A DNA stretch of 64,000 bases from Escherichia coli (GTDB taxonomy: Bacteria; Pseudomonadota; Gammaproteobacteria; Enterobacterales; Enterobacteriaceae): the NCBI RefSeq assembly GCF_003018255.1, contig NZ_CP027440.1; one strand, given 5' to 3'. Both the position numbers and the translations under genes were made by a program. Positions 13,447-16,227 of this stretch are shown in pieces. The notes under the pieces are model-generated. The model had not been told where the DNA came from and did no database searches. It worked only from the letters and a program-made list of their open reading frames with translations. The stretch's first letter is position 1; each line of letters begins with the position of its first letter.

Positions 13447-13454
13447 GGTTGTCA

Positions 13455-13480
13455 AAGGGAGCTGCGGCTCCCTTTTTATT
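13455..13480 (+). terminator. rho-independent terminator after emrB
   Basis: Stem GGGAGC / GCTCCC with loop TGCG, followed by TTTTT. Confidence 0.7.
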
Positions 13481-13703
13481 TGCTCATTTTGCAAACGGTT
13501 GTTTTATCCACTCATTCGGTGTATCTTTTCGCCGCCCCAAACTCTTCCATTCACCATTAACCGGTTCTGAGCATTCGCTCAGGTTGTTAATTCTCTTTTT
13601 CTTTCGCCCTCGCTTTCGCGGGTGATACTCACATTTTTCTTTTAACCCCATAACTCGCACCCTCGCGGGCGTACATTTATTACACACAAAATAATGGATT
13701 ATT

Positions 13704-14411
13704 ATGAATACCCAACGAAAATACGGGAGAACCTGGCATTATCCTTTCTCCCCCGGCACCACCAGCGATGACCGCATTAATGCCGATTACTGGCAGGATT
13801 TACAGGCCATCACGCAATTGGTGCACACAGAAAAACTCGACGGTGAAAATAACTGCCTTAACCGCTACGGCGTGTTTGCCCGTTCCCATGCCGCGCCTAC
13901 GCAGTCGGCATGGACCTATAAAATTCGCCAACGCTGGCAACTGCTGAAAAACGATCTCGGCGATCTGGAGTTGTTTGGTGAAAATCTTTATGCCGTGCAT
14001 TCGATTGAATATCGCGCCCTGGAGCAGGATTTTTATCTGTTTGCCGTTCGCTGCCAGGATATGTGGCTGAGCTGGGAAGAGGTGCAGTTTTACGCCGCTC
14101 TGTTTGATTTCCCCTGCGTTCCCGAAATCTCCGGCCCGCAACCGGGGAATGATGAAAAAAGCTGGCAACGTGATTTTCTGGCGCTGACCAATGCGCGCGG
14201 CGCGTTCGATCCCTGGGATACGCAAACCGGGCAACCCTGTACGCTGGAAGGCATTGTCAGCAGGAATCGTGATGCGTTTTCCGTCGCTGACTTTTCGCAT
14301 AACGTCTTCAAGTATGTGCGCAAAAATCATGTCAAAATCACCGTCCACTGGAAACGACACTGGCAACGGGCGCGGATGGCCCATGAGTTCGATTATGGAG
14401 AACAGTCATGA
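13704..14411 (+). CDS. putative ATP-dependent polynucleotide (RNA) ligase-like nucleotidyltransferase
   Basis: 235-aa ORF; motif I KLDGEN (K44, nt 13833-13850), motif III LFGEN (about residue 91), motif IV EGIVSR (182-187), motif [10 protein letters not shown] (203-211), in ligase order and Rnl2-like spacing; call rests on motif reading only. Confidence 0.62.
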
Positions 14412-15520
14412 TTTGGCAGCTTACCGACGACAAACGCTGGTCGGCGCTACGTCAGCGTTTTAGCTGGGTTGAGGAGATGCATCACACGCCACAAGACCCG
14501 GAGCATCATGGTGAAGGTGACGTCGGCGTGCATACCGAAATGGTGCTGAACGCCCTCGTTACTCAGCCAGAATTCCAGCAACTCCCCGCTCAACAGCAGG
14601 AAGTTTTATGGGCGGCGGCGTTATTGCATGATGTTGAAAAGCGCAGCACTACCGTGCAGGAAAACGGACGTATTCAGTCGCCTGGCCATGCTCGTCGGGG
14701 CGAACTGACGGCCCGACAAATTTTATGGCGCGATATCCCAACGCCGTTCGTGCTACGCGAGCAAATTGTTGCGCTGGTGCGTCTGCATGGGTTACCGCTA
14801 TGGTTACTGGAACGTCCGGAACCGGAGCGTTTGCTGCTCACGGCTGCAATGCGCATCGACACGCGTCTGCTCGCTTTGCTTGCTCGTGCCGATCTGCTTG
14901 GTCGCCAAAGCCCGGATCAGCAATCAATGCTGGAACGCATCGATCTGTTCGAGCTGTTTTGCCATGAGCAACAATGCTGGGGAAAAATGCGCCCGTTCGT
15001 TTCTGATTCCGCACGCTGGCACTACCTGACTCATGAGCAAAGTTCTCCTGATTTTGTTCCCTGGGAGGCTGAACCTTTTGAGGTTATTTTGCTGTGTGGC
15101 TTACCGGGTATGGGCAAAGATCGCTATATCAGTGAACAGTGCCAGGGAATGGACGTTATCAGCCTTGATGATATGCGGCGGCGAATCAATGCCAGTCCGG
15201 ACGACAAAACCGCCACCGGGCGTATTGTGCAACAGGCAAAAGAAGAGGCGCGCGTTTTTTTACGCCAGAAAAAGCCGTTCATCTGGAATGCAACGAACAT
15301 TACCCGCCAGCTGCGCAGCCAGCTCATCAGTCTGTTTACGGCTTACGGCGCACGAGTAAAAATCGTTTATCTGGAAGTGCCATGGGCGCAATGGAAGCAG
15401 CAAAATGCCAGACGCGAGTATGCAGTTCCTGAAGCGGTCGTGATGCGGATGGCCTCAAGGCTGGAAGTTCCTCAACCTGATGAAGCACATAGCGTGGAAT
15501 ATCGGATGACTGACAGGTAA
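14408..15520 (+). CDS. putative bifunctional HD-domain phosphoesterase / P-loop polynucleotide kinase (HD-Pnk-like end-healing enzyme)
   Basis: 370-aa ORF whose ATG overlaps upstream stop (ATGA); N-terminal His cluster H33-H34, H42 and HD dyad H74-D75; C-terminal Walker A-like GLPGMGKD (nt 15098-15121); domain assignment by motif only. Confidence 0.6.
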
Positions 15521-15525
15521 CAAAA

Positions 15526-15552
15526 GCCGGGCGGTGTTTTCACCAGCCCGGC
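15526..15552 (-). terminator. rho-independent terminator at luxS 3' end (possibly bidirectional)
   Basis: Stem GCCGGGC / GCCCGGC around a 13-nt loop; on the minus strand followed by TTTTG; lies between convergent ORF 14408-15520 and luxS. Confidence 0.65.
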
Positions 15553-15570
15553 CTCTTCTGCTTAAACTGA

Positions 15571-16086
15571 CTAAATGTGCAGTTCCTGCAACTTCTCTTT
15601 CGGCAGCGCCAGTTCTTCGTTGCTGTTGATGCGCACGTCACGTTCCAGAATGCTACGCGCAATATCCTGCGCTTCCTGCAACGAGTGCATCTGGTAAGTG
15701 CCACACTGGTAGACGTTCAGTTCCGGGATCTGATTCTGATCCTGCACTTTCAGCACGTCTTCCATTGCCGCTTTCCAGGCATCAGCAACACGCTGCTCAT
15801 CTGGCGTACCAATCAGACTCATATAAAAACCGGTGCGGCAGCCCATTGGCGAGATATCGATAATCTCTACACCATTACCGTTAAGATGGTTACGCATAAA
15901 ACCAGCAAACAGGTGCTCCAGGGTATGGATCCCTCTTTCTGGCATCACTTCTTTGTTCGGCACGCAGAAGCGCAGATCGAACACGGTGATTGCGTCGCCA
16001 TGCGGGGTGTTCATTGTTTTCGCCACCCGAACTGCAGGCGCTTCCATCCGGGTATGATCGACTGTGAAGCTATCTAACAACGGCAT
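15571..16086 (-). CDS. luxS: S-ribosylhomocysteine lyase (autoinducer-2 synthase)
   Basis: 171-aa ORF; recognised as LuxS (HTLEHL metal-binding motif). Confidence 0.95.
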
Positions 16087-16154: not shown

Positions 16155-16227
16155 TGAAAGACGCGCATTTGTTATCATCATCCCTGAATTCAGAGATGAA
16201 ATTTTGGCCACTCACGAGTGGCCTTTT
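16155..16227 (+). ncRNA. micA: MicA (SraD) small regulatory RNA
   Basis: Matches remembered MicA sequence GAAAGACGCGCAUUUGUUAUCAUCAUCCCUGAAUUCAGAGAUGAAAUUUUGGCCACUCACGAGUGGCCUUUUU; divergent from luxS; 3' hairpin plus U-run. Confidence 0.85.

Follow-up and report, generated by a model that had tools for sequence, protein, structure and literature searches.

Among systems that mend broken RNA, the closest described relative of the locus considered here is the LIG-HD-Pnk cassette of Runella slithyformis, a member of the order Cytophagales. This cassette is said to have been described by Munir and Shuman in the Journal of Bacteriology in 2017, and its HD-Pnk protein reportedly removes not only 3' and cyclic phosphates but also 2'-phosphates, and can use DNA with 3'-phosphate or 5'-OH ends as a substrate. 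Work from Shuman's laboratory on the Runella cluster, in which LIG-HD-Pnk sits beside Tpt1 (the cluster being given as LIG-HD-Pnk with Tpt1 or MTase-HIT), described a putative ATP-dependent ligase open reading frame (ORF) lying just upstream of HD-Pnk and overlapping its start, a partner with an HD phosphoesterase domain at its N-terminus and a P-loop polynucleotide kinase (Pnk) domain at its C-terminus that heals 5'-OH and 2',3'-phosphate ends, and a wide spread of the cassette across phyla (Munir et al., RNA 2018, PMC6097658). In a preliminary result, Runella LIG formed ligase-AMP with ATP, and the natural substrates of the system were given as unknown (PMC6097658). Here we analyze a 64,000-nucleotide stretch of an Escherichia coli chromosome (contig NZ_CP027440.1; hereafter the window), in which a 235-residue protein, likewise termed LIG, is encoded directly upstream of an HD-Pnk gene. 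The E. coli LIG, known here from sequence and model whereas its Runella counterpart has been studied biochemically, is an already annotated member of this published cassette type and not a new enzyme.

Bacterial Pnkp-Hen1 and phage T4 Pnkp-Rnl1 follow the same logic, in which end healing falls to a kinase and a phosphoesterase and sealing to an ATP-dependent ligase. Their phosphoesterases have calcineurin-type or HAD folds, whereas that of the LIG cassette has an HD fold; further, LIG is a separate small polypeptide, and its cassette lacks the Hen1 methyltransferase. The ligase module of Pnkp-Hen1 is inactive without its partner protein Hen1. More generally, every structurally characterized RNA ligase clade carries an appended domain that serves RNA adenylylation or substrate binding, and these clade-specific domains contact the ATP gamma-phosphate.

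Sequence features and selection

The LIG gene starts with an ATG preceded, at a distance of five bases, by a GGA Shine-Dalgarno element, and its product corresponds to RefSeq WP_001561911.1, annotated "RNA ligase family protein", the same coding sequence being present in identical E. coli genomes. The match to the Pfam family RNA_ligase (PF09414) spans residues 38-205 and model positions 2-171 of 171 (E 4.4e-28). A word-indexed search returned 2156 homologues at E<=1e-5, and when cluster representatives at 50% identity were searched exhaustively, 1242 were recovered at E<=1e-3; among NCBIfam models none matched at E<=0.01, the Rnl2 equivalog TIGR02307 included.

Recomputed motif positions agree with those proposed in an earlier note on this DNA, namely KLDGEN at residues 44-49, LFGEN at 90-94, EGIVSR at 182-187 and KYVRKNHVK at 203-211. 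These supply motifs I (K44-L-D-G-E-N, with the candidate nucleophile Lys44), III (E93), IV (E182-G183) and V (K203), together with Ia (R60) and IIIa (around F113). In an alignment of 64 family members sharing 32-84% identity, K44, D46, G47, N49, R60, E93, H99, Y103 and K203 are invariant, E182 and G183 are kept in 63 members, and F113 is nearly invariant. Profile match, homologue numbers and conservation lie well outside what chance would produce. Judged by these motifs, which occur in the expected order, LIG belongs to the covalent lysine nucleotidyltransferase superfamily of ATP-dependent ligases, which upholds the ligase-type assignment made earlier from the motifs.

Ahead of the motif I strand there are only 37 residues, and past motif V only 32, and no appended OB, Rnl2-type, Rnl3-type or Trl1-type domain was found in the 235-residue protein, as had been surmised. 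Both flanks are nevertheless conserved. The N-terminal one carries a peptide of the form K-Y-x-R-T-x-H-x-P-x-S-P-G-x-x-x-D-D (K6-Y-G-R9-T-W-H12...S16-P-G...D22-D23 in E. coli), in which R9 is kept in 59, H12 in 63, D22 in 63 and D23 in all 64 of the aligned members; the C-terminal tail retains R206 (62/64), H209 (61/64), H215 and W216. The protein is thus minimal, as the earlier note held, but not of unusual size, since 67 of 150 cluster representatives of the family are 200-260 residues long, making this length the norm.

Across nine orthologues, of which seven belong to other genera, 70-85% of nucleotide differences fall at third codon positions of the sense frame, showing that LIG is a gene under purifying selection. 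A 194-residue ORF does run antisense to LIG (13800..14384) and had been considered as the possible expressed product, but in six of those seven orthologues of other genera its frame is broken by between one and four stop codons. Together with the sense-frame substitutions this identifies it as a shadow ORF, and we rejected it as the true product, its frame not being conserved among orthologues.

Predicted fold and relation to ligase families

An AlphaFold2 model built with the family alignment (mean predicted local distance difference test [pLDDT] 94.2; predicted template modelling score [pTM] 0.91) adopts the ligase nucleotidyltransferase fold, which provides the fold check suggested earlier. 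Both flanks are confidently ordered in it (pLDDT 96 for residues 11-30), the region ahead of the motif I strand being mostly coil. In structure comparisons the model scored highest against Naegleria Rnl5 (15.0) and the nucleotidyltransferase domain of T4 Rnl2 (14.9), followed by archaeal Rnl3 (13.4), trypanosome REL1 (12.9), the fungal Trl1 ligase domain (11.3), DNA ligases (9-12) and capping enzymes (<=8.9). On the predicted fold, the Rnl2/Rnl5 group is therefore structurally nearest to LIG, consistent with the Rnl2-like order and spacing of motifs noted previously. A family-profile search of PDB sequences ranked the Trl1 ligase domain first (9qw7, E 2e-4), ahead of the Naegleria gruberi ligase NgrRnl (E 1e-3) and T4 Rnl2 (E 0.14). 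The profile alignment pairs LIG K44, D46, R60, E93 and E182 with NgrRnl K170, D172, R190, E227 and E312, which are catalytic metal and ATP ligands in the NgrRnl Michaelis complex, and manual extension of the alignment pairs K203 with K326. Matches to mollusc hemocyanin in a single-sequence PDB search were discarded as summed weak matches to repeat units (per-domain E >= 0.2).

Despite these similarities, LIG fits none of the Rnl2, Rnl5 and Rnl6 families in full. With Rnl5 (Naegleria gruberi and Deinococcus radiodurans; PDB 5COT) it shares the Pfam family, the residues of motifs I, Ia, III and IV, and a motif V with a single lysine (K-x-hydrophobic; K203-Y-V in LIG). In place of the N-terminal OB-fold module of about 125 residues that defines this family (NgrRnl, DraRnl), touches the ATP gamma-phosphate and is required for nick sealing, LIG has its conserved 37-residue peptide. 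T4 Rnl2 (PDB 1S68, 2HVQ) has, by its residue numbering, the same 21-residue spacing between motifs IV and V, but the C-terminal helical domain that characterizes T4 Rnl2 and REL1, and that is required for step 2, is absent from LIG, the curated TIGR02307 model does not recognize it, and its motif V carries Val instead of a second Lys. Comparative-genomics papers have placed such phage and bacterial proteins in an "Rnl2 family" of ATP-grasp RNA ligases acting with kinases and phosphoesterases in RNA repair. The fungal Trl1 ligase domain (Rnl6; PDB 6N0T, 9QW7) shares with the LIG family an H-[SI]-[IL]-E-Y element after motif III and a heal-and-seal partnership with a polynucleotide kinase and a phosphoesterase. 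Unlike Trl1, LIG has no C-terminal five-helix domain bearing the two 2'-PO4-binding arginines and no His at position +9 from the motif III Glu, and the healing enzyme of its cassette is of HD type rather than a 2H cyclic phosphodiesterase.

Pairing with HD-Pnk

The LIG stop and HD-Pnk start codons overlap in an ATGA at 14408-14411, an arrangement by which the two genes are translationally coupled. In layout the locus repeats the Runella cassette, with a ligase ORF directly upstream of, and overlapping, the gene for a partner with HD and P-loop Pnk domains (Table 1). Residues 11-105 of HD-Pnk match HDIG and CCA-enzyme HD models, with conserved HD residues H34, H74-D75, H94 and D161, and residues 225-355 match AAA_33 (E 7e-32) and bacterial Pnkp, the kinase domain also being recognized by PSTK models. 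Pnk structures of Clostridium thermocellum match HD-Pnk by sequence and by fold (template modelling score 0.72, Foldseek), and the HD and P-loop residues are kept across 78 homologues. The Walker A motif GLPGMGKD (15107-15130; residues 234-241) has Asp at the position usually occupied by Ser/Thr in P-loop kinases; this residue is at least 90% conserved in the 78 homologues, marking it as a family trait rather than a lesion.

Table 1. Coordinates of LIG, HD-Pnk and neighbouring features in the window
Feature	Position	Strand	Basis or remark
LIG, predicted ATP-dependent polynucleotide (RNA) ligase, nucleotidyltransferase domain only	13704..14411	+	ORF, PF09414, alignment, fold model
HD-Pnk, 370 aa, end-healing partner	14408..15520	+	start overlaps LIG stop
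HD phosphoesterase domain, N-terminal	aa ~20-165, nt ~14465-14902	+	in HD-Pnk
P-loop polynucleotide kinase domain, C-terminal	aa ~225-360, nt ~15080-15487	+	Walker A GLPGMGKD
Terminator-like hairpin directly 3' of emrB stop; left island edge vs K-12	13454..13475	+	
Conserved non-coding block upstream of LIG	13497..13592	+	nhmmer conservation
G+C-rich hairpin between HD-Pnk and luxS stops; right island edge	15526..15552	.	
MicA small RNA, between luxS and gshA	16156-16227	+	Rfam RF00078, 83.9 bits

To place the pair in a wider context we examined 80 LIG loci from Enterobacterales, Bacteroidota and one Neisseriaceae metagenome-assembled genome, encoding proteins 61-98% identical to LIG; having been queried with the single LIG protein, this set is biased to relatives at least 60% identical. 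An HD-Pnk homologue lies directly downstream of LIG on the same strand in all 80, usually after a gap of 0-66 nt and never after one above about 800 nt. Given this strict pairing and the ATGA overlap, LIG is not the stand-alone enzyme that the earlier note had supposed.

Genomic neighbourhoods, fusions and phage homologues

The genes around the pair vary widely, with dnaB-alr-tyrB in Xenorhabdus, holB-ycfH in Budviciaceae and emrB-luxS in Enterobacteriaceae; LIG-HD-Pnk moves as a two-gene unit among unrelated housekeeping neighbourhoods. In several loci the cassette is directly preceded, on the same strand, by RtcB and PrfH, including those of Serratia (L015-L018, L020), Bacteroides (L083) and a member of the Chitinophagaceae (L002). 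In five Bacteroidota loci, some labelled Cytophagales (L038, L043, L048, L057, L061), RtcB comes first, then an FtsH/ClpB-like AAA protein, a membrane protein and LIG. The RtcB and PrfH pair has been reported in rescue and repair of damaged ribosomes. As a separate observation, the loci with RtcB and PrfH hold two chemically different RNA ligases within one apparent operon. Unlike in Runella, no Tpt1 adjoins the cassette in E. coli: a Tpt1/KptA homologue was found within 6 kb of LIG in only one of the 80 loci and in none of the other 79, which shows that the Runella linkage is not general.

In long polypeptides, LIG modules of more distant kinship (35-41% identity) occur joined to polynucleotide kinase domains; from their domain content, these are natural heal-and-seal fusions. 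Six such proteins (P0167, P0180, P0194, P0208, P0233 and P0246) span 596-2357 residues, and some add either a further ligase-like motif or a segment resembling a phosphatase. A further candidate, P0165, seemed to join LIG to HD-Pnk itself and was rejected, as it looks like a frameshift chimera.

Full-length homologues (28-45% identity over residues 6-225) were also identified in viruses, almost exclusively in jumbo or huge phages (LR756502, LR745206, LR756500, Atu_ph07, XacN1, the Caulobacter CcrSC group and Acinetobacter ME3) and in one haloarchaeal virus (Halogranum HGTV-1). Jumbo phages are rich in RNA repair genes, which are thought to counter host attack on tRNA. Several of these homologues carry no better annotation than hypothetical protein or "2'-5' RNA ligase". 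The latter label, carried by P0015, P0022, P0043, P0046, P0115 and the phage XacN1 protein, looks like a propagated misannotation; the name belongs to the unrelated 2H (LigT) family. PADLOC holds no entry matching LIG or HD-Pnk, and the pair is thus not a catalogued defence system.

Proposed mechanism and alternative explanations

Taken together, the fold and motifs of LIG, the selection acting on it, its pairing with HD-Pnk, the Pnk fusions, the RtcB/PrfH neighbours, the jumbo-phage homologues and the Runella literature suggest that LIG is probably the sealing enzyme of a two-gene RNA break-repair cassette. In such a pathway, RNA would be left with 2',3'-cyclic-phosphate and 5'-OH ends after cutting by a ribonuclease that needs no metal, such as an anticodon nuclease, a ribotoxin of the colicin type or the toxin of a toxin-antitoxin pair. 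The HD domain of HD-Pnk would then strip the 2',3'-cyclic, 3' or 2' phosphate while the kinase domain phosphorylates the 5'-OH. Lys44 of LIG would attack ATP to form ligase-AMP, the AMP would be transferred to the 5'-phosphate to give adenylylated RNA (AppRNA), and attack by the 3'-OH would restore the phosphodiester. By analogy with other ligases, the N-terminal peptide (R9, H12, D22 and D23) probably stands in for the appended domain at the ATP/pyrophosphate step.

Several points weigh against this proposal. We know of no LIG substrate, inducing signal or phenotype in E. coli. When LIG and HD-Pnk were modelled as a linker fusion (635 residues, 16 paired sequences), the prediction reached a pTM of 0.60 and the LIG part was degraded, with pLDDT of 60-80 and below 50 at the N-terminus, a result that speaks neither for nor against a complex. 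Isolated nucleotidyltransferase domains of other RNA ligases self-adenylylate and join no ends (CthLIG 1-327). Orthology to the Runella proteins is presumed from identical architecture and from homologues in related loci, some labelled Cytophagales, that are 61-63% identical for LIG and 52-59% for HD-Pnk. Runella LIG itself sealed none of the DNA or RNA substrates with 3'-OH/5'-PO4 ends on which it was tested (PMC6097658). As this is the only biochemical report on a member of the family, sealing is unproven family-wide, and we found no later paper in the literature that resolves the substrate. Given that no sealing has been observed in the family and that truncated nucleotidyltransferase domains stop after self-adenylylation, productive sealing by LIG probably needs either a specific folded RNA, for instance a broken tRNA or rRNA, or the assistance of HD-Pnk or another partner.

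The same findings might point to a different kind of RNA joining enzyme, a domain-less ligase that seals only non-standard ends or only when held by HD-Pnk, a reading that we consider unlikely. Such an end could be, for example, a 3'-OH,2'-PO4 terminus caught midway while the HD domain opens the cyclic phosphate.

A specific form of non-canonical end specificity, distinctly unlikely in our view, is a Trl1-like need for a 2'-phosphate at the 3'-OH end, with the resulting 2'-PO4 junction cleaned by Tpt1 (KptA in E. coli). This would account for Runella LIG, which adenylylates, seals no standard ends and has Tpt1 beside it, and it agrees with the Trl1 domain being the top profile match, in which HSIEY is aligned with HILEY. 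Trl1 reads the 2'-phosphate through a His shortly past the motif III Glu and two Arg past motif V, and the LIG family has an invariant H99 six residues past E93 and conserved R206, H209, H215 and K/R218 past motif V. Against it, the His of LIG lies at +6 rather than +9, the profile alignment misplaces the motif III Glu by three residues, and the basic residues of LIG fall in a non-helical tail instead of the missing C-domain that holds both Arg of Trl1. HD-Pnk, moreover, is reported to remove 2'-phosphates too, and Tpt1 is near only the one locus noted above. E. coli does possess kptA, for whose product no substrate source is known to us, but the gene also occurs in K-12, which is without the cassette. 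Were a 2'-phosphate junction formed, the cassette would constitute a bacterial substrate source for the "orphan" RNA 2'-phosphotransferase KptA/Tpt1.

LIG might instead be an adenylyltransferase that halts at step 1 or 2, leaving an AppRNA "cap" on RNA 5' ends or AMPylating another target, with no joining in vivo. This we regard as quite improbable. It is in keeping with LIG having none of the clade-specific domains on which other RNA ligases depend in steps 2 and 3, and with adenylylation as the sole activity observed for a family member (PMC6097658). It sits poorly with the strict pairing of LIG to an enzyme making exactly 5'-PO4 and 3'-OH ends, with the conservation of the motif IV and V residues of the later steps, and with the Pnk fusions and RtcB/PrfH neighbourhoods, which fit joining better than capping.

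Very improbable is the mending of DNA rather than RNA by LIG-HD-Pnk, at nicks with 3'-phosphate/5'-OH ends. HD-Pnk is reported to act on such DNA ends, but LIG lacks the OB domain common to all DNA ligases, its nearest structures and profile families are RNA ligases, and its neighbours include the translation-repair genes RtcB and PrfH. None of the DNA substrates tested was sealed by Runella LIG (PMC6097658). Finally, a GTP-dependent capping-type guanylyltransferase, to which the shared superfamily fold and the earlier description of LIG as capping-like might point, is hardly credible, as is the antisense ORF as product in view of its interrupted frame: LIG does not fit the mRNA capping enzymes, which are marked by an OB domain with motif VI and by a GTP substrate.

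Distribution of the island in E. coli and flanking elements

In the window, LIG-HD-Pnk is flanked by emrR-emrA-emrB on the left and by luxS, MicA and gshA on the right, MicA having the place expected for E. coli. Compared with K-12 (L084), about 2.1 kb (~13450-15560) replace the 63-bp emrB-luxS spacer, homology resuming at about 15565, and no repeats or mobility genes were seen at the island edges. The island is a presence/absence polymorphism, identified in 998 of 5426 complete E. coli genomes (~18%), always chromosomal and between emrB and luxS; carriers include ATCC 25922, an avian pathogenic O2:K1:H4 strain and an O145:H28 strain. Island alleles within E. coli differ by 5-6% of nucleotides, and that of the window is rare (7 genomes at >=99% identity, against 741 at 90-95%). 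The same emrB-linked site is used in Klebsiella spallanzanii, Kosakonia, Phytobacter, Superficieibacter and an Enterobacter species, which suggests an old presence with repeated loss.

By itself the finding is ordinary, LIG being an accessory gene that already has an annotation and whose cassette type has been published. LIG-HD-Pnk has, on the other hand, been a biochemical loose end since 2017-2018, with a self-adenylylating ligase lacking a known substrate, and here it forms a clean two-gene island in the best-understood bacterium, a standard strain included, so that genetics, challenge with ribotoxins or phages, and junction sequencing are straightforward. Identifying the substrate would reveal how a ligase without any accessory domain recognizes RNA, as well as the type of RNA damage that is mended in E. 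coli strains.

The hairpin at the right island edge, which probably serves as a terminator in both directions, lies between the stop codons of HD-Pnk (15518-15520) and luxS (15571-15573). Upstream of LIG, a block of about 100 nt is kept in Escherichia, Klebsiella, Kosakonia, Phytobacter, Superficieibacter and Enterobacter (nhmmer E 1e-6 to 1e-26), genomes in which about 40-45% of LIG third codon positions differ, and is absent ahead of LIG in other taxa. It matches no Rfam family, the scan returning only MicA nearby, and has no covariation support. The block contains a candidate sigma-70 promoter (TTGTTT-17 nt-TATCTT) followed by a leader, in which a hairpin (TCTGAGC/GCTCAGG, 13566-13583) has an invariant stem, a variable loop and a T-rich tail. 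From the block to the LIG start codon at 13704, this region may thus act as a regulatory leader, in which UUCCAU could pair with AUGGAU at the ribosome-binding site.
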